IMG/VR virus record: IMGVR_UViG_3300028042_000005
Span: 1 to 64,000 of that record
Length of the DNA: 64,000 nucleotides
From: a virus
Strand: one strand, 5' to 3'
Position numbers and translations under genes: made by a program. The notes under the pieces were generated by a model, which saw nothing but the letters and a program-made list of their open reading frames with translations, made no database searches and was not told the DNA's origin. Positions 161-63,624 of this stretch are shown piece after piece. Each line of letters starts with the position of its first letter. Position 1 is the stretch's first letter.

Positions 161-301
161 CCCTCAAGCTCTCAAGACTTACGACTCCCAGCATCTCACG
201 CTTGGCTGTCGAAAAGATTGAGCAAGAAGCTAAAAAATTTTCAGAATTTTTTTCTCTGGATTTTAAAGGTTCTAAGTTTTGTGTTCTGTGTTCTGTGTTT
301 T

Positions 302-368
302 GAAGCTTGGCTAAACTCTAAGCTTTGTGTTTTATGTTTTGTGTTCTGAAGCTTGGCTAAACTCTAAG
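302..368. repeat. Two copies of a 21-bp box, gaagcttggctaaactctaag, 46 bp apart. They share the GCTTGGCTAA core with the upstream array.
   Basis: 302-322 and 348-368 are identical. The flanks are GT-rich (gttctgtgttctgtgttttg). Confidence 0.85.
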
Positions 369-377
369 TTCTAAGTC

Positions 378-406
378 TTGACTCCCAGCACCTCACGCTG
401 TAGAAT
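378..406 (+). promoter_or_regulatory. Sigma70-like promoter TTGACT-N17-TAGAAT upstream of the first CDS
   Basis: ttgact at 378-383, a 17-nt spacer, and tagaat at 401-406. It lies about 37 nt upstream of the ATG at 443. The spacer contains the CTCCCAGC octamer. Confidence 0.45.
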
Positions 407-442
407 CTCATCATAAAGAAACGATTTTGAAGAGGGTGAGAA

Positions 443-889
443 ATGAACGAAATGACAAAACGAGAAGTCATCGACGACTTCAAAAAAGAGAGTTCCTCAA
501 GAATGAGCAAAAACAATAAAACTGGCTGGGCAATCGATTTTGATAATGAATCCGAAACGAACGGGTGCAAAACAGGATTCAAGACTCGTGAAGCTGCTGA
601 AAAAGAGCTTGCCAAACTATTCATCAACAGCTATGACCTAGGGCCCAACGCAAGAGTTCGAAAATTCAGGAACGCAGAACTCAAGGATTTTGGACTCGGA
701 GGAGTTCCCGATCTGGAGCGGTTTGTTGAGGATGCTGAGGGAGATGGACTCGAACCAGCCGAGGGCTCTGACATCTTCGCGCGATGGGATGATCAAATTC
801 TAGAGATTGTTGATGAAGAGGCTTTTGTCGAGGGAATTAAAAAAGCAATCCACGTCAACGGCATTGTTCTTTACGATGAGGAGTGGTAA
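443..889 (+). CDS. Hypothetical protein (148 aa, acidic C-terminus)
   Basis: Complete ORF with ATG preceded by gagggtgag (SD-like). No motif recognised. Confidence 0.6.
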   Translation: MNEMTKREVIDDFKKESSSRMSKNNKTGWAIDFDNESETNGCKTGFKTREAAEKELAKLFINSYDLGPNARVRKFRNAELKDFGLGGVPDLERFVEDAEGDGLEPAEGSDIFARWDDQILEIVDEEAFVEGIKKAIHVNGIVLYDEEW

Positions 890-898
890 CATAGGATT

Positions 899-1387
899 AT
901 GAAGGTTGTAGATTTAAGAGTAAGAAAGTCTCAAATGGAGGCTCCAATCCCTATTCACGATGTCATTGGTCCAGCTTGTGTCGAGTCGGAAAGAAGCGGC
1001 AGAGTCTATTTGGTTTTGAGAGATGGATGTATTTTTGATCTTCAAACGTTCGATTGCTTCGCCGACAAAAAGTGGGTCCATAACTTCAATTGTTGCGTGC
1101 CTCTGAACTTTGAGTTCGTTGGCGAAAGTTGGAAATCCAAAATCGAGAACGGAAGGGTTTTGAACGACAAAAAGTCATGCATGTTCCGAGAGCTGTGTCC
1201 TGGAGACGCTTTCACATGTGAACGGTCTAATGAGGTTCGGATTCTTGCTAGGATGCGTGACCATCGTGGAAAAGAGAAGGTCGGAAGAGCCATAAATCTT
1301 TCAACCATGGGATTGTGTCAAAGGGATTACAGCGACTCCGAAAGAGTCACAATCCATAACATGAGGCTGGTGATTCTTGACAGATAA
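899..1387 (+). CDS. Hypothetical protein (162 aa)
   Basis: Complete ORF following the previous stop by 9 nt, with an AGGA upstream. Confidence 0.55.
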   Translation: MKVVDLRVRKSQMEAPIPIHDVIGPACVESERSGRVYLVLRDGCIFDLQTFDCFADKKWVHNFNCCVPLNFEFVGESWKSKIENGRVLNDKKSCMFRELCPGDAFTCERSNEVRILARMRDHRGKEKVGRAINLSTMGLCQRDYSDSERVTIHNMRLVILDR

Positions 1388-1617
1388 AACAACCACAGAC
1401 ATGGAAGATTTTTGGTCCTCGTATATTTTACACAGGTTGAAGTCGAAGGCTTCCAAGGGCCCAATGATGCCGGAGTTTGTGATTTCGGACGCAGACAGCT
1501 CTTGCTCTTCCTGGATAAACGAGTTCTCAATGTTCCATTGGTGCGAGCTATTAATCGGTGACATTGCCTACTCCAAATTCGAAAACACAAAACACAAAAC
1601 AAACGAAACGACTGAAT

Positions 1618-1932
1618 ATGAAAAACACAAAACTAGAAGAACTCAAGAATAAAGCAATTGAAGCAATTGGAAACGAGGCGTTTCAGGATCTGAAAGTAGA
1701 GCTTGAGCGCGCCGCCATTGGTCCGCTTGAAAAACTCAAAGCTCTGAGCGTGACTCTTGTTGGTGGGCTCTTGATTGCCGCAATGACGGCGTTTGGCGTC
1801 TCTGCTGAAAACCAGCTCTCCGCCGTGTCCGACGTTTGCAAAGCAACAATCGAGCAAGCGGAGGAAAACGTCTCGGACACAGACTCCCAGCAGGTTGATA
1901 CGGACGTCGCGGAGAAGGTGGATGTGGGATAA
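1618..1932 (+). CDS. Hypothetical small membrane protein (104 aa)
   Basis: Internal ATG (MKNTKLEEL...) follows a CA-rich leader. One hydrophobic helix, LVGGLLIAAMTAFGV. Confidence 0.5.
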   Translation: MKNTKLEELKNKAIEAIGNEAFQDLKVELERAAIGPLEKLKALSVTLVGGLLIAAMTAFGVSAENQLSAVSDVCKATIEQAEENVSDTDSQQVDTDVAEKVDVG

Positions 1933-2275
1933 TAGAGAGATTCCAGAGATTACGAATGAGGAAAAGGAGTTCCTTGCGGAAGGGCTTGTATACGGTCCCG
2001 GAGCCGGTCTCGATTTTAGGGTTAGACCCATTCATATCGAAGAGATCGGTAGAACCCGATGGATGAGCCGTAAGGTTGCGTATTTTGAAGTCTCTGGCTA
2101 TAAAGGTCTATTCTCTATGGAATATGGAGACGGCTTGACAGAGCTACAGGAAGGCGACTATCCTGGGCTGTACGAGGGAAACCATCACGAATTTCCGATT
2201 AGAAGAGCAGCCGTCACAGAAAAAGTGATCAAGGTCAAGGAATACAAGACCTTGCGGGAAAAGAAATCCGAGTAA
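1922..2275 (+). CDS. Hypothetical protein (117 aa)
   Basis: The ATG at 1922 overlaps the end of the upstream gene (MWDNREIPE...). The longer track ORF from 1793 overlaps the upstream CDS. Confidence 0.5.
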   Translation: MWDNREIPEITNEEKEFLAEGLVYGPGAGLDFRVRPIHIEEIGRTRWMSRKVAYFEVSGYKGLFSMEYGDGLTELQEGDYPGLYEGNHHEFPIRRAAVTEKVIKVKEYKTLREKKSE

Positions 2276-2295
2276 CTCCCAGCTCTCGGTAAAAG

Positions 2296-2327
2296 GCCTC
2301 AGGACCATGCGTTCTGGGGCTTTTTTG
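2296..2327 (+). terminator. Rho-independent terminator
   Basis: Stem GCCTCAG (2296-2302) pairs with CTGGGGC (2314-2320), one G:U pair, followed by TTTTTT. Confidence 0.6.
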
Positions 2328-2360
2328 CGTCCAGCTTTTTGTCTTGAATATGTGAGTCGG

Positions 2361-3002
2361 ATGTTCTATGATCCATCCATGAACAAAGAGACTTTCGAAC
2401 GGATCGTTGAAGAGCACCAAGACTTTCTCGATGGTAAGCCCTGTGGCAAAAGAGCTGAATTTAAAGAGGTGAGCTTGAAGGATATGACGCTGGAGGGTGT
2501 GGATCTCTCGCAAGCCTCTTTTGACTCGGTTGACTTTTCGGAAGTAAATGTTTCAAACGTCAATTTTTCAAATGCAGCGTTCCATAGCTGCAACATGACG
2601 GCTTGTTTTTGTGGGTCCAAATTCAACAAATCGACCTTCAATTTCACATCGATGATTGACTCAGAGTTCTCTTCCTGCGAATTCAAAGGAACAAAATTTT
2701 ACGTAACCCACATTCTATCATCCAATTTGCATGATTTAAAAGTTGAAGGGGGAACTTGGAGCTTTGGATGGCCGCGCGTTTCAACAGAGAACTATGCGGC
2801 CTATATGCTTACCCCTAGAGTTGTTACTATTGGCTGCACAACGATGGGAGTTCGAGATTGGCTTGGTGAAAAAGGCAGGAAGCTTGCCAATAGTGAGTAC
2901 ATTGATGGGTTGGAATACTCCACTTTGCTGCATTGGGTTCGAGAGTTGGATGTGATTCCGGCGGAGGATCTCGGGTATAAGGCTGAGTCTTGCCAGCAGT
3001 AA
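2361..3002 (+). CDS. Pentapeptide-repeat protein, paralog 1 (213 aa), with a conserved C-terminal GTW..GWP...IGC...WL domain
   Basis: Degenerate A(D/N)LxG-type repeats (VDLSQASFDSVDFSEVNVSNVNFSNAAF...). The C-terminus aligns with the two minus-strand paralogs. The start was chosen downstream of the terminator. Confidence 0.75.
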   Translation: MFYDPSMNKETFERIVEEHQDFLDGKPCGKRAEFKEVSLKDMTLEGVDLSQASFDSVDFSEVNVSNVNFSNAAFHSCNMTACFCGSKFNKSTFNFTSMIDSEFSSCEFKGTKFYVTHILSSNLHDLKVEGGTWSFGWPRVSTENYAAYMLTPRVVTIGCTTMGVRDWLGEKGRKLANSEYIDGLEYSTLLHWVRELDVIPAEDLGYKAESCQQ

Positions 3003-3604
3003 GTCTACGCCAGGCGACGGCACGCGGCCTGGCTGTCCAATTCTCCCGTTGTTTTTACCAACATTCTCGTGTTGGAGACGGAATTTGCGGGGAAGAGTTT
3101 CGCGTAACAATTTACAGCCCAAAAATTCTGAAAGCTGCGTTAAAAACCGAAAAAGAGCTTCAAGAATCGATATCGGACAACTCTCAGTACAACCTATATA
3201 GAAGGCCATCGGTTCGGGCGTGTATCTACGGAGTTGTTTGTTGGGACTCGAACCGTAAGATTGGTGATGACTTAAAAAAGTCAAGAGTTAGAAAGTCCAT
3301 GGCAAGAGGTGGATATGGGCCGCTCACATATGAGCTGGCATTCTATCAAGCACAAATCCTTGAAGGTCTCGCGTCCTTGGGTCCAGATACGATCCTGTCA
3401 AAGGCGGCGAAATGTCTCTGGAGAAATTTTCATAAGCGTGACGACTTCGAGACCATCGGCAGAGGTATTTTTTCCTCCAGCTACTTTCATTTGTCTCCAA
3501 AAAGCCCAAAATCCATGGTAAAAAGGAGCGAGGAGATGGGAAGGAGCTACGCGTTTCTGGACGAAATCCTCGTCAACTCCTGTATTGACTTTGTTCTTCC
3601 GTAG
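2990..3604 (+). CDS. Hypothetical protein; start uncertain (TTG at 2990 or ATG at 3299)
   Basis: Long open frame with no recognisable motif. The first in-frame ATG is at 3299. Confidence 0.4.
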   Translation: MPAVSLRQATARGLAVQFSRCFYQHSRVGDGICGEEFRVTIYSPKILKAALKTEKELQESISDNSQYNLYRRPSVRACIYGVVCWDSNRKIGDDLKKSRVRKSMARGGYGPLTYELAFYQAQILEGLASLGPDTILSKAAKCLWRNFHKRDDFETIGRGIFSSSYFHLSPKSPKSMVKRSEEMGRSYAFLDEILVNSCIDFVLP

Positions 3605-3619
3605 AGGCATCATTAATTT

Positions 3620-4387
3620 ATGAAGAGAAAGCCGTTCATCAAAGAAAAGGTTGTTTACCGAACTCCCGGCGGGGTTGAATTTGACAGCAAAAAGGCAGCG
3701 TACAAGAACTGGGCGGCTGTTTTGTGTTACGAAGCTTTGAATTCGCGCGGCTCGGAGAAGATGCGTAAAGCTTGTGAGCGTGGGTTACCAGAAGGTGTTA
3801 CGAGCAAGGTCGCGAATCTCATGATGAAAATTGATGAGACTCCGCTCTCGGATTACAATACAACTGCCAGTGATGTTGAGGCGTATGTTTGGTCTCGGAT
3901 TCCTTCTGTTGATAAGCATTTTGTTGAGAAGTTGGTGTATTACTCGCAAGCTTGGCATTTGGTTTGGGAGGATAAGCCGATGTTCAATGATTGTATTGAG
4001 GCCTCCAGCCGTGGACCCTCCATCCCGTCTCTTTTTATGCAAAATCTTGGGGATCGAGACGTTTTGACTGAGGAGGAACGTCGCACGGTCGATGCTGTGA
4101 TTGAGCGCTACAAAAACAAAACGGGTCAATGGCTAAAAGACCTTTCCAAGAGAGAAAAGCCTTGGGTCGATGTTAGGAACAAGCTCAAGCTTTCTGCTGG
4201 GGAGAGGTGCGAAGAGGTCATTACACACGCCGCTATGGATGATTATTACTCCTCAATCTATCGTTCGGATTCGCTGGGGCCCGCCCAAGAGCTGACTGAC
4301 GACATTCTCCAGCAGATTCGTGAGGAGTCTACGAAGCTTGTTGCTGTGGTAGAAAAGTTGACCGCCTCACTAGATGGATTTCTGTGA
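3620..4387 (+). CDS. Panacea/DUF4065 (PanA, GepA/SocA-like) domain protein, 255 aa
   Basis: The core KLVYYSQAWHLVWEDKPMFNDCIEASSRGPSIPSLF matches the DUF4065 signature (KL.Y.aQ.w.L...g.plF...ieAw..GPv.p.ly) as I recall it. Confidence 0.6.
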   Translation: MKRKPFIKEKVVYRTPGGVEFDSKKAAYKNWAAVLCYEALNSRGSEKMRKACERGLPEGVTSKVANLMMKIDETPLSDYNTTASDVEAYVWSRIPSVDKHFVEKLVYYSQAWHLVWEDKPMFNDCIEASSRGPSIPSLFMQNLGDRDVLTEEERRTVDAVIERYKNKTGQWLKDLSKREKPWVDVRNKLKLSAGERCEEVITHAAMDDYYSSIYRSDSLGPAQELTDDILQQIREESTKLVAVVEKLTASLDGFL

Positions 4388-4698
4388 GCGCACTGACTAA
4401 AAACGCTCTTTCGTGGGGACTTTTAGAGTCCCAAATTTTGTATTACTTTCCACACCTTGCTCATAAATCATGGGGAGAACCAGTTGACGACTCTGTCTAT
4501 GATTTTGTTGAGGACTACTACACAAAAACATTCAACATGCAGCGCCCTGGACCCCCAAACGTTGAGCGTCCTAGCTCCAGGCTCATAGTTAATAAGCTGG
4601 GGAGCCCAAGGAAGTCGTCAAAGCTCATTGTTGATGTCGCGTATAAAGAGCTAACTGGCAAAAAAGCAAAGAGAACTTCAAAGAAGAAAGTTAAATAA
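4384..4698 (+). CDS. Hypothetical protein (104 aa) with a lysine-rich C-terminus, translationally coupled to the Panacea gene
   Basis: The GTG start overlaps the upstream TGA (GTGA). No motif recognised. Confidence 0.5.
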   Translation: MSALTKNALSWGLLESQILYYFPHLAHKSWGEPVDDSVYDFVEDYYTKTFNMQRPGPPNVERPSSRLIVNKLGSPRKSSKLIVDVAYKELTGKKAKRTSKKKVK

Positions 4699-4699
4699 C

Positions 4700-4981
4700 A
4701 TGCAACATCTCAACAATGAACAGCAACACGTCTTCGGCAAGGTGTTTCGCTCTCCCAGCACTTTGGAGCTATTTCGCGCAGCGCTTGGAATTCTGAAACT
4801 CGAATCAACAAAGGGTGGTGAGTTTGAGAATGCATGCGTATCGCGCATGGAGCGGTTAGAAATCCTTGCAAACGGGCCTCTTGTTACAAAACAAGCCATG
4901 GTAGCCTTGGTCAATCGAGCAAAAGATGTTATCTTGTCTCGGATGATTCTTTTTGAAATGACCAAGCAGGTGGCAAAATGA
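4700..4981 (+). CDS. Hypothetical protein (93 aa)
   Basis: Complete ORF, tightly packed against its neighbours (ATGA overlap with the next gene). Confidence 0.5.
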   Translation: MQHLNNEQQHVFGKVFRSPSTLELFRAALGILKLESTKGGEFENACVSRMERLEILANGPLVTKQAMVALVNRAKDVILSRMILFEMTKQVAK

Positions 4982-5415
4982 ACTCCAGGTTTAGAATCCT
5001 CCACATTTTGACCATTCTCTTTGCCGTTGGATGTGAAGAGCCAGAAGAACTTCCTCCTCCAGCTCCCCAGGAGCGTCCAGGTTATCCAGCTTTGGATCCT
5101 GAGCCAGAGCCCCCGAAGCCAATGAAAAGCGGTGACGAGCTTTGTGAGGCGTTCTGGGAGTGTTCCGTAGGGTGTGGGGAGATTGTGTTCGGAAACGCTT
5201 TTCAAACCCAAGACAAAAAGCTGGAGTGTCTTGAATTTTGCAAGCTCCCCAATTTCGTCACACAGGAGACTGGGGAGGAATGGGGACAAGCTTGTTCGAT
5301 TCTCGTTTCTCCAGATGACAAAAGCTTTGCGGCTTTGCAGCTCCAAGTATGTGACGATGGGTTGGAATTCTGCTACCATTTGGGCGACCTCAGCGATGCG
5401 TCTAAAAACGAATAG
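4978..5415 (+). CDS. Putative Cys-rich lipoprotein (145 aa)
   Basis: N-terminal signal MNSRFRILHILTILFAVGC with a lipobox-like AVGC. A Pro/Glu-rich linker is followed by a Cys-rich region. Confidence 0.55.
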   Translation: MNSRFRILHILTILFAVGCEEPEELPPPAPQERPGYPALDPEPEPPKPMKSGDELCEAFWECSVGCGEIVFGNAFQTQDKKLECLEFCKLPNFVTQETGEEWGQACSILVSPDDKSFAALQLQVCDDGLEFCYHLGDLSDASKNE

Positions 5416-5477
5416 TTTTGATTATTTAGTTTGGATTATTTTTTGATTTCGAAACAAAAAACACAAAACACAAAGTC

Positions 5478-6611
5478 ATGAGTACAACAATGAAAAAAAC
5501 AATCACAATTCTGTCCATGAGCCTCGCGCTTTCTTCCACGGCATGCGGTGAAAAGGAGGCTCTGCCCGCACCCCCTCTTCCTGGAGGAGGAGCCGAATCT
5601 GGAGCGAGCGCAACCAGCGGCGCGACTTCTGCGTCTGGCGGTAGCGGTAGCGGTAGCGATGGCTCCTCTGGCGGGCCGACATGCTCGATGCAATGTCCAG
5701 ACGACGAGAGCGGCACATGCGCGGGCCACGCAGAATGGTCTCGTGGCCTTGTCGTTTGGGGCGTGTGGCAATCGACGGATGCAGACGGCGGCTCTAGCGG
5801 CTCGTTTTCGGTGAGCGATGTCCATGGAGATCCAACCTGTGCAACCATTGGAATCTGTCAGGCATACGAATCCCCATCGGACATTGACGCCTACTCGGCA
5901 GATATGCTTGCTGAGCAGATGCAAAAATGCAAAGCATTCACAAACGCCGATTTGAACTCGCTTGGTCTTACCGACAGCAGTGTTGGACAATACGGGCATA
6001 CTCTCGTTCATCACTTTTGCACGACTGGTCGGCTTGACAAGGATTACATGGGGCAGCATTTCAGCGTCAACCTGGATTCGTCTTTGGATTCCTGTGCTGG
6101 AGTTGAGTGGAAATACGAAGGTTCCTGTAGCGGGCCCGATTGTCCGGACAATCCTGGTGGCTCTGGCACCGACACTGGAACGTCGACTGGCTCCGGAGCT
6201 GGGGCTGAGGAGTATGATTGTTCTTCGTTCCATACGAGCAACATCATTACGACAAATGTTGGTGGAAGAAACGTCCACGAAGTTGACGTTGTTATCCGTG
6301 GAGGAATGCCTCTTGCTATCGCCAGCGATCCATACCCGGCGATGTATTACTGTGCAGATGGCATGGTCGATATCACTGGCACAGTGCACAGCATTGGCGG
6401 GCACTCGGTCATGGGGACGTCTGGATTTGGGCTTATGAATCTTGATGAAATTCAAGAGGTCAATGGCGAGACGGATCCGACGCTCTTTGTGAATGAGCTA
6501 TCGGACGACCTGGCTCCGCTCCTTGCGACTCCTCCAGAGGCGGCGCTTGAAAGCGTTGTGAAGGTTCTTCGTGGATCCACTGTGTGGACCTACAACGTGG
6601 AATGGATTTAG
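5478..6611 (+). CDS. Putative Cys-rich lipoprotein (377 aa) with Gly/Ser-rich linkers
   Basis: Signal MKKTITILSMSLALSSTAC (lipobox-like STAC). It has GSGSGS linkers and many Cys residues. A CA-rich leader lies upstream. Confidence 0.55.
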   Translation: MSTTMKKTITILSMSLALSSTACGEKEALPAPPLPGGGAESGASATSGATSASGGSGSGSDGSSGGPTCSMQCPDDESGTCAGHAEWSRGLVVWGVWQSTDADGGSSGSFSVSDVHGDPTCATIGICQAYESPSDIDAYSADMLAEQMQKCKAFTNADLNSLGLTDSSVGQYGHTLVHHFCTTGRLDKDYMGQHFSVNLDSSLDSCAGVEWKYEGSCSGPDCPDNPGGSGTDTGTSTGSGAGAEEYDCSSFHTSNIITTNVGGRNVHEVDVVIRGGMPLAIASDPYPAMYYCADGMVDITGTVHSIGGHSVMGTSGFGLMNLDEIQEVNGETDPTLFVNELSDDLAPLLATPPEAALESVVKVLRGSTVWTYNVEWI

Positions 6612-6674
6612 CTAGCAAATAATGGGCAATACAGCTCGTTCTTCCACGTCTTGTAAAATCCACTAAAGAATCGC

Positions 6675-6704: not shown

Positions 6705-6812
6705 CGTCTTCTCGTTTCGGCCCCTCATCTTCATTCACATTTGCTCGAGAAGGCCCCTCACGTCTCTCCCAGTATTTTACATAGCTGAAACCTTCGGAGA
6801 GCCTGTCTTTTA

Positions 6813-56908: not shown

Positions 56909-57625
56909 ATGCCGAGAATGAATTCACTTCAAAAGTTGGACTTTGGCCTGATTCAGTCTGGCTCCAAAAGATTTCCCAGCATTTTCGACTTTTCTCGAAG
57001 TCGTTCAAAAGAGCGTCTTGAGGAGTTGCTTGAAGAACTTAACGACAGCACTCAAACCCAGCTCAAAGCTGGGAAGGGTCCTCTGACATACGAGGAGGCT
57101 CATAGGGTTTATTCGAATTGGAGATACCAGGTTGATTCTGCGAAGGGGCTTCCTGGCAACTTCGCTAGGTTTCGTTCTCCTAAGCACGTGAACGCAATTC
57201 GATCATGGACTTTGGCGCTCCTGAAAGTTGGAGCGACCCCCGTTGAATATCTCCAGCAATTTACCGAACAGATTGCGAGGATGCAAAAACAAAACTCTGG
57301 CTATGGCAATCCATGCTATGCCTTCGCAGATTCAACGTCGAGAGACGTCTTTTTGAAGCTCTCTTCGCGAAAGAAAAAGCTTGCCGGAGCTGGACACTCT
57401 CCCAGCAACTACGAGGCTCCGTCCGGCCTTGACCCAGCGGTTCGAGAAGCCTGCTCACGCGTCCCTGAGTTTCCAATTAAAGATTGGAGCGACAAGGACT
57501 TGCTTTCGATAATTGATTACGCTAGGATGGTCCTAGACGGCTCTCCCATTTTCGTCGAGCATGATTACGTTAGGCGGGCCGCGGAGGAAGTTTCAAAAGT
57601 TTTGAAAGAAGGGAGTCGGGGGTGA
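56909..57625 (+). CDS. Hypothetical protein (238 aa); possible replication initiator/organiser by position
   Basis: It lies directly upstream of, and is coupled to, the DnaC-like loader gene. No motif recognised. Confidence 0.4.
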   Translation: MPRMNSLQKLDFGLIQSGSKRFPSIFDFSRSRSKERLEELLEELNDSTQTQLKAGKGPLTYEEAHRVYSNWRYQVDSAKGLPGNFARFRSPKHVNAIRSWTLALLKVGATPVEYLQQFTEQIARMQKQNSGYGNPCYAFADSTSRDVFLKLSSRKKKLAGAGHSPSNYEAPSGLDPAVREACSRVPEFPIKDWSDKDLLSIIDYARMVLDGSPIFVEHDYVRRAAEEVSKVLKEGSRG

Positions 57626-58392
57626 GATCTATAGAAGATATTCAGGGGTTCAAAGACTCCTTATCGAGAAAACTCGCGAAGTCATGTGAACATGCTGGGC
57701 CTCTCCCAGCGCAAAGAACCCTCTCAGCGAGGGACTCAATGTGCTCTTGTAAAAAGGAGTGGTTAATCCAGTCAAAGGCGTTTGAAGCTTGTGTTCCCAG
57801 AAAATTCTGGAACTCAACAGCAAGGGATATTTTTCACAACGGACCCGTTTACAATGGCGTCATTGTGAAATTTCAGGAGAACTTAAGCACCGCTTTTGAT
57901 ACCGGTGCCGGGTTGTTTCTTCATGGCCCGAACGGATGTGGGAAAACAATGTTCTTGAGTATGCTGATGATGTATTGTATTCGGAACACAAAGCTGTCGT
58001 GCTACTATACGACGGCACTACAACTTGATCATGATATCAAAAGCACGTTCGGGAATTCCAAAGCCGCAGAAGAGAGAGGTCGAAGAATAGAGAGAATGGT
58101 AAAGTCCAGAATTTTTGTGCTTGATGAGCTGGGGAAAGAAAGGTTCAAGGGAGGAGATTCTTACACGAGAACAAAGCTTGAACTCTTCTTGAGGAACAGA
58201 GAGGAAGAGAAGTTTCCGATTCTGATCGCAAGTAACAAAACTCCAAAGTCTCTTCGACAGTCCGTTGAAGATGGTGGATATGGGGAAACTTTTGGATCTA
58301 TAATTGATGGTTCGTGCTTGGCAGTGCCAATGCTTCCTGGAGATCAGAGAGCTAGACAGGGAAAAGAACTGAGAAAGAAGATGGGATACTGA
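57622..58392 (+). CDS. DnaC/IstB-like AAA+ helicase loader (256 aa)
   Basis: Walker A HGPNGCGKT and Walker B IFVLDELGKE. The GTG start overlaps the upstream TGA. Confidence 0.65.
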   Translation: MRSIEDIQGFKDSLSRKLAKSCEHAGPLPAQRTLSARDSMCSCKKEWLIQSKAFEACVPRKFWNSTARDIFHNGPVYNGVIVKFQENLSTAFDTGAGLFLHGPNGCGKTMFLSMLMMYCIRNTKLSCYYTTALQLDHDIKSTFGNSKAAEERGRRIERMVKSRIFVLDELGKERFKGGDSYTRTKLELFLRNREEEKFPILIASNKTPKSLRQSVEDGGYGETFGSIIDGSCLAVPMLPGDQRARQGKELRKKMGY

Positions 58393-58422
58393 TGAGACAA
58401 GAAGCTCAAGAAAAGGTGATTC

Positions 58423-58716
58423 GTGGGGTATAATAAAGAGTACGCATTTTCACTCTCCAGCAATGGAGTTATTTACGATTTTAAAGTTCTTCGATTCGAA
58501 GAGGATCTTGTTCACTTCGCATCTCGCTACGATTCGTTTACACCTATTGAGTGCATAGTAATTCTTTACGAGGGATCGTGGGAAATTTCGTCAGTCGCTC
58601 CGAAGATTGACCAGAGCTTGAGACTAGATATTTTGGAATTCTTCGAAAAGAACGACTCTCCTTGGGATCTGGAAGAAGATCAGATAGAGTATTGTTGTGA
58701 TTGTAATTTTGTTTAG
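58423..58716 (+). CDS. Hypothetical protein (97 aa)
   Basis: GTG start preceded by aaggtga. Confidence 0.45.
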   Translation: MGYNKEYAFSLSSNGVIYDFKVLRFEEDLVHFASRYDSFTPIECIVILYEGSWEISSVAPKIDQSLRLDILEFFEKNDSPWDLEEDQIEYCCDCNFV

Positions 58717-58727
58717 CAGGTAGAGAG

Positions 58728-59069
58728 ATGTATAACGAAGAATACTCATTTTACGTCGATTATGTCATTCAACAACAAACGATGAGCATAGAAAAGTTTT
58801 ATGTTGATCATTTTTCGTATGACCTTCTCGAATTTCATAGCGCCGACTATTGGGGAAAGGCGAAGTTTGTTGATGACACATGGGTTGTTGATTTGAACTG
58901 TGAGCATGATTACGACAAACGCCTCACTCTAATAAAGAAGTCTCTTGTTGAGAAAATTCAGGAGTTTGGAATTCCTAGCGAAGATAATATCCTTCGTTCC
59001 AGAGAGCTTGCTCGTACTCAATTTGAAGATGGAGATAACTGGGAATGTTGCCACGAGAAAAACTCATGA
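58728..59069 (+). CDS. Hypothetical protein (113 aa)
   Basis: Complete ORF with an SD-like ggtagagag. Its layout loosely resembles the previous gene (YSF...DLxxFxS...W.V), so the two may be distant paralogs. Confidence 0.45.
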   Translation: MYNEEYSFYVDYVIQQQTMSIEKFYVDHFSYDLLEFHSADYWGKAKFVDDTWVVDLNCEHDYDKRLTLIKKSLVEKIQEFGIPSEDNILRSRELARTQFEDGDNWECCHEKNS

Positions 59070-59263
59070 TTCGTCCCGTTCAAGAAAATGCACAGACCGG
59101 TGATTTTGTCGTGGAGCTGCAAGAGGAACAGGCAGATTGCACTTGTATAGGAACTCTGGGGGTTCACTCCGAGTTCTTTTACGATCCTGATGGGGGCTTT
59201 TGTGAGTGGTGTGGAGAGAGCCCGAAAGTTCACCTTGTTTTTGAGGCCGCAAAGAACCCATGA
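59066..59263 (+). CDS. Small Cys-containing protein (65 aa)
   Basis: ATGA overlap with the upstream gene. It contains CTC...CEWC. Confidence 0.4.
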   Translation: MIRPVQENAQTGDFVVELQEEQADCTCIGTLGVHSEFFYDPDGGFCEWCGESPKVHLVFEAAKNP

Positions 59264-59706
59264 TTCGCTTCATTCAAAACGGCAACATTTTTGAATCTAA
59301 AGCTGATATTCTACTGAACCCCGTGAACTGCGTCGGCGTTATGGGAAAGGGGTTGGCTTTGGAGTTCAAAAAGAGCTATCCAAGCGTTTTCTCGGAGTAC
59401 AAAAAGCTTTGCGAAAGCAAAAAGATGCGTCTCGGAGATCCGGTTATTGTGGAAAATGTTTGTTTGTTTCCAACTAAGCTTCACTGGAGAGATCCGTCTT
59501 ATTTGAATGACATTGATATCGGTCTCAAAAATCTTGCAGAAGTTTTGCAGGACTGTGGCTTGAAAAGTGTCGCGATCCCAGCGTTGGGATGTGGTCTCGG
59601 AGGACTAAAGTACGAGGAAGTTCTTTCTGTTGTGTTGCTACGAACCTTGCCGCTGAGTCGAGATGGTTTTGATATCGAAATCTACATGCCTCTGGAGAAT
59701 CAATGA
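59260..59706 (+). CDS. Macro-domain protein (ADP-ribose binding/hydrolase), 148 aa
   Basis: ADILLNPVNCVGVMGKGLALEF and IPALGCGLGGL are the two hallmark Macro-domain loops. Confidence 0.7.
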   Translation: MIRFIQNGNIFESKADILLNPVNCVGVMGKGLALEFKKSYPSVFSEYKKLCESKKMRLGDPVIVENVCLFPTKLHWRDPSYLNDIDIGLKNLAEVLQDCGLKSVAIPALGCGLGGLKYEEVLSVVLLRTLPLSRDGFDIEIYMPLENQ

Positions 59707-61064
59707 CAGAAGTAGACTTCGCACCAGAGTTCCAAGCGGATGTGCTTTCTGTCCTCTTGACGAACAAGGAGAGATTTAAGACCGCTCGTTCTTTTGTTTC
59801 GGCCGATACATTCACTATTCCAGAATGCAAATGGATTTACGAACACGCACTGTCTGTGTTTGACTCCTCTGGAGATTTGCCGACGAGCGGCTTGGTTGCT
59901 CAAGAGGCGACGTCGTCTTTTGGAGATGGCGAGTTCGAACATTTGATTGCTGTGCATCATGATTTGATGCAAGGTCGCTCCGCTCCGAAGGAGATTATGT
60001 CCTCGGCCGCAAGGTTCTCCGAGGACGCGAGCTACAGAGCCGTTGCTAGAAAGCACGATAAGCTCGTCGAGCTGGGAAAGTTTTCGGAAGCTAGAGAACT
60101 GATGGAGAGTCAGTCTTGGAAGATTGTCGGACCTTCTCAAGAAGAAAGGCGCGTAATTCTCGGTTATAACGATATAGAAAAGGTCCTCGACAGAGCCAAA
60201 GCTCGCAGAGACGATCCAGAAGCGTTCAAGTTCTCTACAGGGATTAGAGAGCTTGACGCTCTGATGAAGGGTGGCTACAGGCGCCAGCACATGCTCATGA
60301 TTCTGGGATGGACGGGGAGAGGTAAGAGTACTGTATCTGTCAATATGGCTAGTACCAACGTCAAGAGGGGTCATAAGGGCATCTATATCTCTTCGGAAAT
60401 GACGGTTGACGAGATTTTCGTGAAGATGATTGCACGTGAGACGATGACGGCATACGATCTTATTTATGAGTACTCTTTCGATAAAACTCAGGAGGGGGAA
60501 TTTCTGAAACTCCTGAATCATAAAGTTCAGAGTTATAAGGATCTCCTTGTTGTCGAACAAACTGGAATCTATGGAACAAACAGAGCGTCTCTGATAGACG
60601 CTATGGATCGTGCAGCTGACTTTTTCGGAGAAGAAGCCTCTTGGGTTGTGTTCGATACTCTAAGCCATTGTGAGACGGACAAATACAAAGACGCACATAA
60701 AGGGGCCGCTGATAACTTGAACTGGTGTAAGTCACAATTGGAAGAGCGGGACGCGGCTGGGATTGTAACCGCTCAAGCAAACAGAGATGGTGCGGTAAAA
60801 ACTGACGAGAGCAATGTAGCCGACACAATTGAGGGAGCTAGAGTTGCGCAGTGGATTGTTGCTGTAAATGATCCGGATGAGAACAATTTGCCGGACGCAC
60901 ATGCAAGCATCGACGACCTCCTCCAGCCTCCTGACTTCTATCAGGGAAAGGTTCTTTCGCTTTTGAAAGCAAGATTCGGTAGGACAGGGGATGTTCCAGT
61001 ATCCACAAACTTGGAATGCTCCTTTGTTGGAGATCTCTACATTGAAAACAACGTGCGCGGTTGA
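59703..61064 (+). CDS. dnaB: Replicative DNA helicase (DnaB family), 453 aa
   Basis: TGIRELDALMKGGYRRQHMLMILGWTGRGKST (Walker A), YISSEM, VVFDTLSH and TAQANR are DnaB C-terminal RecA-fold blocks. Confidence 0.75.
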   Translation: MTEVDFAPEFQADVLSVLLTNKERFKTARSFVSADTFTIPECKWIYEHALSVFDSSGDLPTSGLVAQEATSSFGDGEFEHLIAVHHDLMQGRSAPKEIMSSAARFSEDASYRAVARKHDKLVELGKFSEARELMESQSWKIVGPSQEERRVILGYNDIEKVLDRAKARRDDPEAFKFSTGIRELDALMKGGYRRQHMLMILGWTGRGKSTVSVNMASTNVKRGHKGIYISSEMTVDEIFVKMIARETMTAYDLIYEYSFDKTQEGEFLKLLNHKVQSYKDLLVVEQTGIYGTNRASLIDAMDRAADFFGEEASWVVFDTLSHCETDKYKDAHKGAADNLNWCKSQLEERDAAGIVTAQANRDGAVKTDESNVADTIEGARVAQWIVAVNDPDENNLPDAHASIDDLLQPPDFYQGKVLSLLKARFGRTGDVPVSTNLECSFVGDLYIENNVRG

Positions 61065-61096
61065 GGGCGCTTACATTGAACTCTTGGGGCGATAGA

Positions 61097-61321
61097 ATGA
61101 AAGACATAGGAATCACAAAAGAGGCTCTCGAAACCATCGTATCCAGAGGTTATGACTTTTACCTCGATGATTCCCTTCCAGAAGATATCGTAGGTCTTTC
61201 AAAGATTTCTAATCTTTTTAAAAACTGGAAAGACTTTGTTGCTGCAAAAGATAAGCTTGATGGTTCCATGGAATCCGCATGCAAACACCATGGTGTCGTA
61301 CTTAGCGACCCCAAGGAATGA
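61097..61321 (+). CDS. Hypothetical protein (74 aa; an alternative TTG start at 61061 overlaps the dnaB stop)
   Basis: Complete ORF. The start is ambiguous. Confidence 0.4.
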   Translation: MKDIGITKEALETIVSRGYDFYLDDSLPEDIVGLSKISNLFKNWKDFVAAKDKLDGSMESACKHHGVVLSDPKE

Positions 61322-61620
61322 AATTTTTGGACTCGATCGAGATTAAAAAAGCCACAATCGTAGAAAAAAACGGATTGGACTATGTTGTGTTAGAGCTTCG
61401 CGAGTCTTTTTCCATGCGGGAGCACGGCATCTCCGAGAAGGAAAATTATGTGACGTTCATTGCGGAATGTGGGTGTGGAGAGAAATGGGTCAACGAGATG
61501 TTGCCCGAAACTTCTTATGATGTGGCTTCTGAAGTTCTTGGATACACAAAGACCGTGAAGAAGACGACGAAACTAGAACACCGTGTTTCAATCAAATTCC
61601 GCAAGGATCGTCCAGCATGA
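61318..61620 (+). CDS. Hypothetical protein (100 aa)
   Basis: ATGA overlap with the upstream gene. Confidence 0.45.
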   Translation: MKFLDSIEIKKATIVEKNGLDYVVLELRESFSMREHGISEKENYVTFIAECGCGEKWVNEMLPETSYDVASEVLGYTKTVKKTTKLEHRVSIKFRKDRPA

Positions 61621-61856
61621 ATGGAAAAGAAATTGCGGCTGAGGCTTTAGAAAAGATTCTAGAAGGAAAGTCAACTTGCTGGGAGGAGGATTACTTCACA
61701 TTCTTTAATTCCCAATTTAGAATCTTCGGTCTTGATAAAAATTCAAAGGCGACCAAGCTTTGGAACGACCTATCTATTGCGTATCAAGACCTCCGCGAAA
61801 CGATTGATGAAGCTTGTGAACTTCACAATATGGATTTTGACGATTTTCGTCCCTAA
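61617..61856 (+). CDS. Hypothetical protein (79 aa)
   Basis: ATGA overlap with the upstream gene. Confidence 0.45.
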   Translation: MNGKEIAAEALEKILEGKSTCWEEDYFTFFNSQFRIFGLDKNSKATKLWNDLSIAYQDLRETIDEACELHNMDFDDFRP

Positions 61857-61892
61857 GCTTGCTCTTCATTCCGCCTTTTTGTATAGTGATTG

Positions 61893-61966
61893 TGTCCCGT
61901 GGCGAAATGGTGAACGCAGCGATCTTATAAGTCGTGCATATGTGGGTTCGAACCCCACCGGGACGA
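61893..61966 (+). tRNA. tRNA with anticodon TAT (would read AUA, Ile); no encoded CCA
   Basis: Manual cloverleaf fold. Acceptor: TGTCCCG / CGGGACG (U1:G72). Also present: U8 and a D-arm GCGA...ACGC. Anticodon stem: GCGAT / GTCGT, with loop CTTATAA. T-arm: GTGGG-TTCGAAC-CCCAC, a perfect match to the canonical form. The variable loop is 6 nt. Confidence 0.6.
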
Positions 61967-62020
61967 TATAACAAAGAGGAAAGTAAATGAAGAAAAAAAA
62001 ACGATGTTTTGGAGTTTCAA

Positions 62021-62632
62021 ATGAATGAACGTGTTTGCCGGGAGCAACAAAGATTTTGGGACTCATATCTTGATGTTGTGGACACCATTTACTTGGACTT
62101 AGACGACACGCTCGTTGATCTCACCGGAGTCCTTCTTCAGAAATTTGGCCACGAAGAGAGCGAAAGGTCAAAAATCACAAGCTACAACCTCGCTCCAGTA
62201 ATTGGCAGGTACAGAAGCGAAGTTCAATTCTGGGAAGACGTTTCAAGGTTTGGAATTGACCTTTGGGCGGACCTGCAGCCAACTACACATGGAAAGGTTC
62301 TTTTGGATTTTTGTAAGACCCTTGAGAAGGAGCGCGGGATCAAATGGCAGATCGTCACGGCTCTCGTGCCACAAGAGCATGGGGAATGCGCGAAGGTCTC
62401 TGCAGCAGGGAAAGTTGCCTGGGCGATTAACCAAAATCTTCTAGACAGGCTCTGTATTTGCACAAACAAAAGCGCCCATGCGGCTCCGACAAAGCTATTG
62501 ATTGATGATCGTCAAGAGAGCGTGGAATCTTTTAGAAAAGCTGGAGGGCTAGCCTTGACATTCCCCCAGCCATGGAATACAGGGACGACTGTAAAGCAGC
62601 TCTATGATGACATCCACGCACCTCGATGGTGA
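62021..62632 (+). CDS. HAD-superfamily 5'(3')-deoxyribonucleotidase-like protein (203 aa)
   Basis: Motif I DLDDTLVDL (DxDxT). Size and layout resemble NT5C-type phage nucleotidases. Confidence 0.5.
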   Translation: MNERVCREQQRFWDSYLDVVDTIYLDLDDTLVDLTGVLLQKFGHEESERSKITSYNLAPVIGRYRSEVQFWEDVSRFGIDLWADLQPTTHGKVLLDFCKTLEKERGIKWQIVTALVPQEHGECAKVSAAGKVAWAINQNLLDRLCICTNKSAHAAPTKLLIDDRQESVESFRKAGGLALTFPQPWNTGTTVKQLYDDIHAPRW

Positions 62633-62639
62633 AGAATGG

Positions 62640-62667
62640 GCCCGCACAGAAATGTGTGGGCTTTTTC
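62640..62667 (+). terminator. Rho-independent terminator
   Basis: GCCCGCACA / TGTGTGGGC stem (one G:U pair) followed by TTTTT. Confidence 0.6.
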
Positions 62668-62694
62668 GTTTTGTAGCCTTGACTACGCTTCCTC

Positions 62695-63624
62695 ATGGTG
62701 CTAAAGTTGCTTATGTTTGATTTTGAATCATGGCTCGACATCCATCTATCTGGAAGGAGAAATGGAAATGAATACTCAGCAGCCTGTCCGTATTGTGGAA
62801 AGGCTAGGAAGTTTTCTGTAAACATCGAACTCAAATTGTTTCGATGCTTTTCTGGCTCTTGTCAGTCAAGCGGAAGAGCTTGGCAGTTGATCAAACATGT
62901 CGAAGGCCTCTCTGGGAAAGAAGCAAGGAAGCTGCTTGGCTCTGAGTACGACTCGACGAAACCAGCTTTCATGAAAAAGAAAGCTATCGAGAACAAGAAG
63001 TGGAACATCGATTTGCCTGAGGAGTTTATTCCTTGTTTGGAAGTCGGTAGAGTCCCAGAATTCAGAAACATTCAATATCTTAAAGACAGGATTCAGAACT
63101 CGACATTAAAAGAGTTTGGAGTTGGGTTTTGTAAAACCGGCCTATGTTGGGATCGTGCCGTGATTCCAGTCTCCTCTCCGTTCGGGCAAGCGTGGACTGC
63201 TCGTGACGCCACCGACAAGTGGAAGGAGGATCCGAAGCGTTCCAAGTATTATAACCCTCGAGGCGGTTGGGCCAACGACTTGTTGTTTGGTTGGCCACAA
63301 TACGAGGCTGGGAGCGACCTGATTTTGGTGGAAGGCCCGTTTGATGTCATGAAGCTCTATGAGTATGGCTTGTCTGCTATGGCCTTGCTGGGGAAGGAGC
63401 TAGGTCAGGGACAAAGGGCCCAACTATTATCTCTCCCAGCAGACACGTATGTAGTGGTACTTATCGATCCAGAAGAAAAGAGGTGGATTATTGATGATAT
63501 TCGTGATAAGTTGTCTTTGAAGTTCAGAAACATGTTCGTGGGAAAACTCCCGATAGGGGTTGATCCTGGCTCGTCCACAAAAAAGCAAGCGATCGATTGC
63601 GTAGACTCAGCAGAAAGAATTTAG
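62695..63624 (+). CDS. DNA primase (zinc-finger + Toprim), 309 aa
   Basis: CPYCGKARKFSV...FRCFSGSC zinc finger. Toprim motifs LILVEGPFDVMKL and VVVLIDPEE. Confidence 0.7.
   Translation: MVLKLLMFDFESWLDIHLSGRRNGNEYSAACPYCGKARKFSVNIELKLFRCFSGSCQSSGRAWQLIKHVEGLSGKEARKLLGSEYDSTKPAFMKKKAIENKKWNIDLPEEFIPCLEVGRVPEFRNIQYLKDRIQNSTLKEFGVGFCKTGLCWDRAVIPVSSPFGQAWTARDATDKWKEDPKRSKYYNPRGGWANDLLFGWPQYEAGSDLILVEGPFDVMKLYEYGLSAMALLGKELGQGQRAQLLSLPADTYVVVLIDPEEKRWIIDDIRDKLSLKFRNMFVGKLPIGVDPGSSTKKQAIDCVDSAERI

Follow-up and report, generated by a model that had tools for sequence, protein, structure and literature searches.

An over-represented, strand-oriented octamer in the genome of an uncultured myovirus, possibly a Chi-like site of its host

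The DNA analysed here, referred to as the window, is a 64-kb stretch (positions 1 to 64,000, on which the counts are based) of the 96-kb genome of an uncultured tailed phage, a myovirus. The G+C content of the window is 47%. The phage encodes its own DnaB, a helicase loader and a DnaG-type primase. Neither a recombinase nor a known RecBCD inhibitor was recognised among the ~60 window proteins scanned (64 of the 96 kb), and the 70 kb examined showed neither an integrase nor any other indication of lysogeny; the phage appears to be lytic.

The top-ranked octamer of the window by frequency is CTCCCAGC, with the complement GCTGGGAG, of which an exact count finds 24 copies on the + strand and six on the − strand (Table 1). 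The 20 + and four − copies of the original prediction are all in place, but four further copies on the + strand and two on the − strand had been missed, and one of them (25,768) lies in the interval from 20.4 to 33.8 kb that was said to hold no exact copy. Dinucleotide shuffles average 2.0 copies on both strands together and never exceed 6, as against the 30 observed. For the 24 copies on the + strand, Markov models predict 0.66 (order 1), 1.84 (order 3; p = 6e-19, the word being ranked first) and 6.9 copies (order 4; p = 3e-7), while at orders 5 and 6 the expectation rises to 17–21 and the signal is absorbed, but only because the 6- and 7-mer sub-words of the octamer itself share the excess. 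Synonymous-codon shuffling gave a mean of 4.5 copies on the + strand (maximum 9, z = 14) and codon-order shuffling a mean of 2.7 (z = 24), both nulls containing ~3 unshuffled copies. The excess is large and survives composition- and codon-aware nulls. The motif is also sharp: among its single-base variants, TTCCCAGC is clearly enriched (11/11 on the two strands), CTTCCAGC (7/4) and CTCCCAGA (5/4) are mildly so, and the remaining ones are at expectation.

Table 1. Exact copies of the octamer and the wider family in the window; "new" marks copies missing from the original prediction
Feature	Coordinates	Strand	Context
CTCCCAGC	185..192	+	leader/intergenic, weak 50-aa ORF
CTCCCAGC	382..389	+	intergenic; overlaps −35 hexamer and spacer of sigma-70-like promoter TTGACT-17-TAGAAT, 378–406
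CTCCCAGC	1884..1891	+	sense frame 2; new
CTCCCAGC	2276..2283	+	intergenic
CTCCCAGC	4752..4759	+	sense frame 1
CTCCCAGC	7295..7302	+	sense frame 0 (LPA)
CTCCCAGC	8822..8829	+	sense frame 0, AAA ATPase gene
CTCCCAGC	8894..8901	+	sense frame 0
CTCCCAGC	12880..12887	+	sense frame 2, RNase T-like exonuclease gene
CTCCCAGC (GCTGGGAG on +)	16092..16099	−	antisense to + gene
CTCCCAGC	16373..16380	+	sense frame 1
CTCCCAGC	20388..20395	+	sense frame 2, portal gene
CTCCCAGC	25768..25775	+	sense frame 1; new
CTCCCAGC	33822..33829	+	sense frame 2
CTCCCAGC	34468..34475	+	sense frame 0
CTCCCAGC	40279..40286	−	antisense to + gene; new
CTCCCAGC	42998..43005	+	sense frame 1; new
CTCCCAGC	43246..43253	+	sense frame 0
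CTCCCAGC	43501..43508	+	sense frame 0
CTCCCAGC	44267..44274	+	sense frame 1
CTCCCAGC	46376..46383	−	antisense to Kelch-repeat structural gene
CTCCCAGC	47911..47918	+	sense frame 2
CTCCCAGC	52849..52856	+	in minus-strand SNF2 helicase gene, antisense to transcription; new
CTCCCAGC	55583..55590	+	in minus-strand gene, antisense to transcription
CTCCCAGC	56585..56592	−	between called genes
CTCCCAGC	57399..57406	+	sense frame 1
CTCCCAGC	57703..57710	+	sense frame 0
CTCCCAGC	61678..61685	−	new
CTCCCAGC	63307..63314	−	primase gene
CTCCCAGC	63433..63440	+	sense frame 0, primase gene
GCTGGRRR / YYYCCAGC family (GCTGG, then three purines)	1..64000	both	dispersed

Genes contain 27 of the 30 copies, 20 of them in sense orientation (eight, seven and five in frames 0, 1 and 2) and seven antisense, the other three being intergenic, so the spread over all frames and intergenic DNA described earlier is borne out, as are the peptide readings LPA, SQ and PS. 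The 24:6 skew is significant against the composition-expected ratio (binomial p = 7e-7) as well as against 0.5 (p = 0.0014), and it opposes base composition, since this C-rich word prefers the + strand, which is G-rich. Two + strand copies, not only the one pointed out originally, lie in the minus-strand gene block of the window. In the minus-strand blocks of the window and of the relative L007 taken together, the heptamer TCCCAGC occurs six times on the + strand and twice on the − strand, which fits a DNA-strand model and disagrees with a transcription-linked one (p = 0.011); the polarity is therefore a property of the DNA and not of the mRNA. The top skewed octamers of two further relatives, L010 and L008, used as a negative control, are frame-locked codon artefacts, unlike CTCCCAGC. 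These results support the earlier view of the octamer as a DNA-level, strand-oriented signal and not a peptide or codon artefact. The first 9 kb hold eight of the 24 + strand copies; the 6.2 kb to the left of the window have one copy on the + strand and two on the − strand, and no consistent clustering toward the low-coordinate contig end is seen over the window and these 6.2 kb.

The octamer does not stand alone; it belongs to a previously overlooked family of words, GCTGGRRR / YYYCCAGC, enriched on both strands. The + strand carries 57 G-rich and 77 C-rich forms, with ~20 of each under the synonymous-shuffle null, i.e., 134 copies in total versus ~39 expected, spaced in a Poisson-like manner at ~1 site per 480 bp. 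The main members, given as the G-rich word on the + and − strands, are GCTGGGAG (6/24), GCTGGAGG (16/12) and GCTGGGAA (11/11), followed by GCTGGGGA (12/9) and GCTGGAGA (4/10); CTCCCAGC/GCTGGGAG is the sole skewed one. The non-polar part of the family is read as either a general oligonucleotide signature of the host or a set of weak partial sites.

Relatives (L001, L004, L006, L007, L008, L010 and L011) were compared as partial loci. The closest ones, L001, L004 and L006, with protein identities of 62, 59 and 49%, lack the motif, and two that are more distant have it. L007 (45.5% protein identity, 52% G+C) has 12 copies of TCCCAGC on the + strand and one on the − strand, where the codon-aware null predicts 3.0 and 1.2, and the word ranks third of all 7-mers; in L011 (30% G+C) it is present in small numbers and is not polar (3/4). 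Against the codon-aware null TCCCAGC ranks first to third of all 7-mers in L011, the window and L007. The distribution of the motif does not follow phage phylogeny. Moreover, in orthologous genes only one position is shared between nine CCCAGC sites of the window and 18 of L007; the sites are thus not conserved in position and were acquired independently rather than inherited. In both genomes it is the terminase-sense strand that bears the C-rich form.

This pattern is best explained by selection that keeps adding CTCCCAGC to the phage genome with a preference for one orientation. The reader of the word would most likely be a host end-processing helicase-nuclease of the RecBCD or AddAB type, in which case the word would be the Chi site of the host or a close equivalent. 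We consider it possible, with a probability of roughly 0.45, that CTCCCAGC/GCTGGGAG is such a Chi-like site. Double-strand ends may arise at the injected end, at a rolling-circle tail, at the packaging cut, or at a break made by restriction or CRISPR; the enzyme would enter the phage DNA there, meet a correctly oriented site and switch from degradation to RecA loading. The phage DNA would be spared and could feed recombination-dependent replication yielding concatemers. The form that is read may be either the G-rich GCTGGGAG or the C-rich CTCCCAGC.

On the Chi reading the word would also be enriched in the host chromosome, the defining property of Chi. The large and robust excess, the spread over all frames and intergenic DNA, the DNA-strand polarity, the contrast with the frame-locked control words, the non-phylogenetic distribution and the independent gain of sites all count for the Chi reading, as does the lack of a recognisable recombinase or RecBCD inhibitor among the ~60 window proteins. 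So does the architecture of GCTGGGAG, GCTGG followed by NNN. The RecBCD Chi sites of E. coli (GCTGGTGG) and Pseudomonas syringae (GCTGGCGC) differ in the last three bases only, in the same way as GCTGGGAG differs from each, and weak recognition of 7+1-mers is known (PMC5959072). Like these, GCTGGGAG is G-rich, eight bases long and, in its distribution, orientation-dependent; unlike them, its partial (7+1) variants are enriched without polarity. A close precedent, also counting in favour, is provided by Chi-rich phages, LLS of E. coli with a 20:3 orientation and MD8 of Pseudomonas with 32:0, Chi being the most frequent octamer of the latter (PMC12315714). Chi richness has been tied to a missing phage recombination module, in these and ~60 other lambdoid phages (Genome Res 2025, PMC12315714); Bobay et al. 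2013 (PMC3784561) give earlier statistics on Chi in phages. As in LLS and MD8, one octamer is the commonest or nearly the commonest word of the genome, at ~1 copy per 2–3 kb, its copies lie overwhelmingly in one orientation across genes whatever the frame, and the part of the genome examined is likewise without a recognisable recombinase or RecBCD inhibitor.

The likeness has its limits. The Chi of LLS and MD8 has been established by experiment for hosts that are known, whereas here it is a putative one, and those phages are of the lambdoid siphovirus type, unlike this myovirus, which has a 96-kb genome and encodes DnaB and a primase. The terminase-sense (top) strand is the one that carries Chi in lambda, LLS and MD8, whereas here the G-rich Chi-like form is on the strand opposite both the terminase-gene sense strand and the G-rich strand, which counts against the Chi reading; this requires either entry of the enzyme at the low-coordinate side or reading of the C-rich CTCCCAGC, and the latter would be unlike any Chi known to us. 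The 4:1 skew, which is not absolute, also speaks against it, as does the absence of consistent end clustering, since in Chi-rich phages the sites concentrate near the RecBCD entry end. The same is true of the non-polar enrichment of TTCCCAGC and other family members, which a pure Chi would not predict and which is a further difference from LLS and MD8. The earlier Chi-like proposal is partly supported, by architecture and precedent; the strand geometry is not in its favour.

The occurrence of the same heptamer among the top three in phages of 30, 47 and 52% G+C implies either one Chi shared by hosts over a wide G+C range or a reader borne by the phages themselves. The latter, a horizontally exchanged phage protein, with polarity imposed by a one-directional process such as replication or packaging, is a serious rival to the Chi reading, if rather unlikely. 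Candidates would be an endonuclease that nicks one specific strand, as happens in T5-type interrupted genomes, a loading preference in replication or of a primase-helicase, and a DNA-modification enzyme, and the absence of the motif from closer relatives has the patchiness typical of a mobile phage gene. The C-rich form on the terminase-sense strand in the window and L007, the phage's own DnaB, helicase loader and DnaG-type primase, and several HNH endonucleases in the relatives are in keeping with it. Nevertheless, no candidate gene is common to the motif-bearing genomes in the partial loci compared, nothing in the window matches the non-structural genes of the L007 locus compared, and L011, at small counts, shows no polarity of the word. 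A genome-wide ~20-fold excess is explained neither by known primases, which read 3–5 bases, nor by nicking, given the small number of known phage nick sites. That the octamer and its family have no dedicated function, and the phage has drifted toward a host oligonucleotide signature left by mutation and repair bias, is quite unlikely. Enterobacteria are known for signatures rich in GCTGG/CCAGC on both strands, a phage and its host tend to converge in signature, and GCTGGAGG, GCTGGGAA, GCTGGGGA and CTGGAG/CTCCAG are indeed about equal on both strands and evenly spread. Such drift accounts badly for the sharpness of the enrichment, in which most words one base away do not exceed expectation, for the 4:1 skew of the octamer against base composition and independent of transcription, and for the 12:1 skew in L007; nor is there the depletion of transition neighbours that very-short-patch repair leaves (CTAGC ratio 1.03).

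An orienting cue for a DNA translocase, whether host FtsK, the packaging motor or the handling of replicating DNA, is very unlikely, even though an eight-base, polar, evenly dispersed and transcription-independent word has the formal properties of KOPS and other architecture-imparting FtsK octamers. KOPS operate on dif-bearing chromosomes, and an apparently lytic phage without a sign of integrase or lysogeny in 70 kb offers no reason for FtsK guidance; CTCCCAGC also resembles neither GGGNAGGG nor GAAGAAG, and the non-polar family would be left unexplained. To our knowledge, the direction of terminases is set by the initial cut and they have no guide words. KOPS are described as co-evolving with FtsK (PMC3384302). 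The asymmetry and strand bias of the word recall the EcoP15I sites of T7, all in one orientation, by which that phage evades a Type III enzyme needing two inversely oriented sites. Strong avoidance of GAGCTC, GTTAAC and CTCGAG could be taken as a further hint of restriction. Such an escape is highly improbable here, since it predicts purity of orientation and, if anything, depletion, as in T7, where the sites are not over-represented, and not a ~20-fold excess; with six inverted copies remaining, the phage would still be cut. A role as an operator or promoter element, also raised originally, is the least probable of all. It suits one or two sites, namely the copy overlapping the good promoter at 378–406 and a related CCCCAGCACCT in a weaker promoter-like context near 7162–7195. 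It does not suit the others, which lie mostly inside genes in every frame with Poisson-like spacing; no family word is found close upstream of a start codon, two chance cases excepted, and a promoter scan yields no more sites than shuffled sequence.

As for restriction-type avoidance in the genome, GAGCTC occurs 0 times versus 19 expected, GTTAAC once versus 16, and CTCGAG three times versus 18.

An exhaustive count found 24 copies of the C-rich octamer CTCCCAGC on the + strand of the window and six on the - strand; it is the commonest octamer of this DNA. All the copies listed in the original prediction are present, and six had been missed (1884, 25768, 42998 and 52849 on +, 40279 and 61678 on -). 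The supposed lack of copies between 20.4 and 33.8 kb was an error, as shown by the one at 25768 on +. Dinucleotide shuffles gave 2.0 copies on both strands combined, with a maximum of 6. The expectation for the + strand is 0.66 copies under a Markov model of order 1, 1.84 under order 3 (p = 6e-19, rank 1), and 6.9 under order 4 (p = 3e-7). Orders 5 and 6 bring the prediction to 17-21 copies, but only through their conditioning on sub-words of CTCCCAGC showing the same excess, such as TCCCAGC (36 copies) and CTCCCAG (31 copies). For codon-aware nulls, genes were called with a codon-usage score. Shuffling of synonymous codons within each gene left 4.5 +/- 1.4 copies (maximum 9) and shuffling of codon order 2.7 +/- 0.9, versus the 24 observed; in both these nulls ca. 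three of the copies lie outside the shuffled codons. The proposed excess thus stands against Markov and codon-aware nulls alike.

The copies are spread over sense frames 0, 1, and 2 (eight, seven, and five, respectively), antisense positions (seven), and intergenic DNA (three), and the flanks of the 30 copies show no relation to one another, which rules out a repeat element as their source. Since all the frames are used, the flanks are unrelated, and the excess survives the codon-aware nulls, the abundance of CTCCCAGC is a DNA-level property and not a codon, peptide, or repeat artefact, as the original prediction had held with regard to codons and peptides. The 24:6 skew opposes the base composition of the + strand, which is G-rich (binomial p = 7e-7 versus the composition-expected ratio). 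Most of the window genes lie on the + strand, and the polarity of DNA can be separated from that of mRNA in the minus-strand blocks. The block of the window has two copies of CTCCCAGC on + and none on -, and the first 7.7 kb of L007, a locus of a related uncultured phage, which is transcribed leftward, has four copies of the heptamer TCCCAGC on + and one on -. The pooled minus-strand blocks of the two genomes give 6 on + versus 2 on -, with p = 0.011 under a transcription model. The DNA-strand model fits; this evidence is modest in size and consistent in two genomes. The predicted strand orientation is therefore upheld, one orientation predominating irrespective of gene direction (24:6 in the window, 12:1 for TCCCAGC in L007). 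The signal is real, strong, and strand-polar at the DNA level.

Only one single-base variant of CTCCCAGC is clearly enriched, TTCCCAGC, with 11 copies on each strand; CTTCCAGC (7 on +, 4 on -) and CTCCCAGA (5 on +, 4 on -) are mildly enriched and all the others occur at expectation. The base 3' of the octamer is A in 13 of the 24 copies, and there is no other flank constraint. The top words of five to eight bases in comparison with the synonymous-shuffle null, i.e., CCAGC, CCCAGC, CTGGAG/CTCCAG, TCCCAGC, CTCCAGC, CCTCCAGC, and CTCCCAGC, have the core CCAGC/GCTGG in common at every length. On the G-rich strand the family reads GCTGG followed by three purines and has 134 copies versus ca. 39 expected. 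It comprises GCTGGGAG, the complement of CTCCCAGC (6 on +, 24 on -), GCTGGAGG (16 on +, 12 on -), GCTGGGAA (11 on +, 11 on -), GCTGGGGA (12 on +, 9 on -), and GCTGGAGA (4 on +, 10 on -), with strong polarity limited to the octamer CTCCCAGC. The family sites are evenly spaced, ca. one per 480 bp, with Poisson-like gaps, and the E. coli Chi sequence GCTGGTGG is found in the window only twice. Pairing of + and - copies in inverted repeats or hairpins was rejected, as close opposite-strand pairs are not in excess, and so were ribosome-binding sites for the GGAGG-containing members (none within 15 nt upstream of any start codon) and a repair signature of the very-short-patch type (no depletion of transition neighbours). 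Other strongly skewed words, AGGTTTGC (17/1), TTGCTCCC (14/1), and GGTCTGCT (11/0), are unrelated to the motif and come from a 15-bp tandem repeat in a pentapeptide-repeat gene.

The window belongs to an uncultured tailed phage with a genome of ca. 96 kb; on an ENA contig of 96,079 bp that is nearly identical to it, it spans about 6.2-70.2 kb. The sequence examined, ca. 70 kb, comprises the window and the 6.2 kb to its left taken from that contig. No match to the window was found by megablast among cultured phages. The best identity of TerL, sheath, and capsid proteins to known phages in substantial alignments is at most 31%, and the sheath has one match of 37% at 12% coverage. Genes for the large terminase, the portal, the tail sheath, the tape measure, and the baseplate all lie on the + strand, as does a replication block comprising a helicase-loader-like ATPase together with a helicase and a primase of the DnaB and DnaG types, respectively. 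The ca. 70 kb showed neither an integrase nor any other indication of lysogeny, and no recombinase or known RecBCD inhibitor was recognised among the ca. 60 window proteins, mostly ORFans (64 of ca. 96 kb). The coordinates are listed in the table.

Features of the window, with positions in nucleotides unless stated otherwise
Feature	Position	Strand	Remarks
Non-coding leader	1-440		three and a half 40-bp tandem units
Leader unit starts	9, 49, 89		each unit a hairpin GCTTGGCTAAACCCTGAGC followed by a T-run
Further hairpins	~301, ~345		related to GCTTGGCTAAACCCTGAGC
Strong sigma-70-like promoter	378-406		TTGACT-17-TAGAAT; downstream of the hairpins
Pentapeptide-repeat protein	2307-3002
SocA/Panacea-domain protein	3620-4387		auxiliary gene
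Palindrome GCTATAGC	7621, 10379, 10929, 11588, 48768		5 copies versus 0.55 expected
PhoH	13775-14875		auxiliary gene; N-terminal extension of ~147 aa
Large terminase	16607-18757	+	716 aa
Minus-strand gene block	~50.0-56.1 kb	-	SNF2 helicase, metallophosphoesterase, two pentapeptide-repeat proteins
Pentapeptide-repeat protein	50676-51629	-	contains the 15-bp tandem repeat
15-bp tandem repeat	50996-51430		~28 copies of AGGT[TC]TGCTCCC[CT]NG (as on +)
Pentapeptide-repeat protein	51657-52514
Macro-domain protein	59260-59706		auxiliary gene
tRNA-Ile	61893-61966		anticodon TAT (reads ATA); among replication genes
5'-3' deoxyribonucleotidase	62009-62632		auxiliary gene

The large terminase is longer than that of most relatives (ca. 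545 aa). The extra segment of ca. 170 aa on its N-terminal side is probably an intein, since it matches intein/LAGLIDADG-bearing DnaB helicases and terminases with 40-67% identity. A similar insert is present in the terminase of L001, another related phage locus, which has HNH endonuclease genes on its flanks. The window departs from the ENA contig (L005, 6242-6306) in its first 65 bases and is otherwise identical to it, suggesting that the copy number of the leader repeat differs between the two assemblies; the repeat region may act as an origin or a regulatory array.

Loci of eleven related uncultured phages were obtained through terminase homologues, and the idea that the word should recur in related phages proved true of two of them. 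There is no enrichment of the motif in L001, L004, L006, and L008 (62, 59, 49, and 46% protein identity to the window, respectively) or in L010 and L013, and in L009 it is not significant. In L007 (45.5% identity; ENA ERZ27271364 k119_1389574) the 12 + and one - copies of TCCCAGC, compared with 3.0 and 1.2 under the null, give it rank 3 of 16,384 heptamers. In L011, of 30% GC, TCCCAGC ranks first and GCTGGGA fifth (three and four copies versus 0.2 and 0.5) with no polarity; the TerL proteins of L011 and of the relative P0003 share 53% identity. Of the CCCAGC sites in nine orthologous genes, 9 in the window and 18 in L007, only one is common to both; the sites were therefore acquired separately by the individual genomes. 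Nor does the motif follow the phage phylogeny in its distribution, and together these two features indicate selection from outside the core phage lineage, exerted either by a host factor or by a mobile gene of the phages. The octamers of greatest skew in L010 (CCGAGGTC, 16/2) and L008 (GCTCGAAG, 11/2) served as a control and resembled polar motifs under the Markov null. They are locked to one frame (11 of 14 copies in L010 and 7 of 11 in L008) and lost under the codon-aware null, and were thus rejected as codon artefacts, a caution for skewed-oligomer screens of GC-rich phages.

The best explanation is probably that the phage belongs with the recently described Chi-loaded phages, and the polar octamer CTCCCAGC/GCTGGGAG may be the Chi of a host with RecBCD or AddAB, to which we assign a probability of about 0.45. 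The biochemically defined RecBCD Chi sites of E. coli and Pseudomonas, GCTGGTGG and GCTGGCGC, differ in the last three bases only, and 7+1 variants of Chi are weakly recognised (PMC5959072). GCTGGGAG is an exact fit to this architecture of GCTGG plus three bases, but it lies on the strand opposite to the G-rich one, which is the sense strand of the terminase. Chi-rich phages without their own recombination functions accumulate oriented host Chi: of the 23 Chi sites in E. coli phage LLS, 20 share one orientation, and in Pseudomonas phage MD8 this is true of all 32 copies of GCTGGCGC, the commonest octamer of that phage (PMC12315714). Ca. 60 further lambdoid phages are similar to these two, and the hosts of the published Chi-rich phages range from Providencia to E. 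coli (PMC12315714; for earlier statistics see PMC3784561). The window resembles LLS and MD8 in its DNA-level excess (24 versus 4.5 and 2.7) and dominant orientation (24:6), and MD8 also in that the word is the top octamer. It differs from them in the type of phage and in the word itself, for which there is no earlier report as a Chi. The Chi of lambda, LLS, and MD8 is carried by the terminase-sense strand, where RecBCD encounters it on entering from the far end (PMC12315714), whereas in the window the G-rich form is on the opposite strand; this geometry would imply either entry from the low-coordinate side or the C-rich CTCCCAGC as the read strand. In LLS and MD8 the sites are denser towards the end where the enzyme enters (PMC12315714). 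Of the 24 + copies, 8 fall in the first 9 kb of the window, and the 6.2 kb to its left, up to the contig end, contain one copy on + and two on -. The non-polar family would be an oligonucleotide signature of the same host or a set of weak partial sites.

Besides the strand geometry, two findings weaken the case for a host Chi, namely the enrichment of near-variants without polarity and the presence of the same heptamer in relatives of 30-52% GC. This GC range is possibly compatible with hosts of one order sharing a Chi, and is equally expected if the word is read by a horizontally exchanged, phage-encoded protein, an explanation that we regard as rather unlikely. A host signature devoid of function would leave the polarity of the word unexplained, and is improbable. 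KOPS-type words are polar and converge on dif or the terminus of a replicon handled by FtsK or SpoIIIE. A translocase guide of this type, put forward in the original prediction, has little probability: the polarity does not switch within the 70 kb examined, neither an integrase nor another lysogeny sign was seen there, the word is unlike known KOPS or SRS, and the replicon logic is absent in a phage that appears lytic.

Evasion of Type III restriction by site orientation would produce orientation purity without excess, and with six inverted copies and a ca. 20-fold excess here it is very improbable. Least probable is a regulator site. Promoter or operator elements would be expected in non-coding DNA ahead of genes, with a constant spacing to the starts. 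This suggestion of the original prediction fits only the copy within the promoter-like sequence at 378-406 and perhaps a variant near 7171, and 27 of the 30 copies are intragenic, only one overlapping a good promoter-like site. There is also a small but appreciable chance of a previously unknown polar recognition sequence. It would be the Chi of an uncultured host lineage, possibly read on the C-rich CTCCCAGC, unlike every known Chi, or else the target of a DNA-processing system that is strand-specific, encoded by the phages, exchanged horizontally, and common to distant relatives (30-52% GC). What leaves this chance is that no host was traced, that the strand being read is ambiguous, and that the motif occurs patchily in relatives of very different GC content.

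Host Chi is by definition over-represented in the chromosome and usually co-oriented with replication, and the helicase-nuclease of the host is attenuated, or nicks, at Chi when it arrives from one side only. A search of 185,579 species genomes with a TerL profile gave no match, and a genome-wide scan for pairs of motif copies no more than 30 bases apart picked up tandem repeats and taxa unrelated to one another; the only dispersed occurrence, in a Lachnoclostridium locus, did not reach significance. PhoH homologues show ca. 50% identity throughout and are uninformative on the host. The nearest bacterial one (51% identity, with the same N-terminal extension) belongs to a phoH-ybeY neighbourhood; its contig (L137) has a GC content of 69% and shows no enrichment of the motif. 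The source samples are ENA ERZ27262682 and ERZ27271364. Homologues of the Kelch-repeat structural protein are confined to the phage clade, no mention of the sample accessions was found in the literature, and a literature search for CTCCCAGC returned only primer noise.

To our knowledge, fewer than ten Chi sequences have been established experimentally. If the word is a host Chi, metagenomic phage genomes could reveal the Chi of uncultured bacteria. The borrowing of host RecBCD by means of a Chi-loaded genome, so far described for lambdoid phages, would then extend to a large virulent-type myovirus with its own replication genes. If the reader is phage-encoded, its patchy spread among the relatives would indicate a mobile, sequence- and strand-specific DNA-processing function, as yet undescribed. 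Under either reading the sites are a concrete target for synonymous recoding.

Four of the five copies of the palindrome GCTATAGC lie within 4 kb of the early region, each of them intragenic. Several other palindromes are strongly avoided in comparison with the synonymous-shuffle null (GAGCTC, 0 versus 19.4; GTTAAC, 1 versus 16; CTCGAG, 3 versus 18.2; CTTAAG, 5 versus 19.2), and all TTAA-containing pentamers are depleted 3-4 fold in the window. L007 is enriched in CGATC/GATCG and in the palindrome CGATCG (30 versus 12 under the codon-aware null) and, unlike the window, is rich in GAGCTC-containing words; hence, L007 and the window phage probably differ in host or restriction environment. The depletion of palindromes in the window looks like restriction-site avoidance, and the avoided palindromes may aid in narrowing the choice of host.
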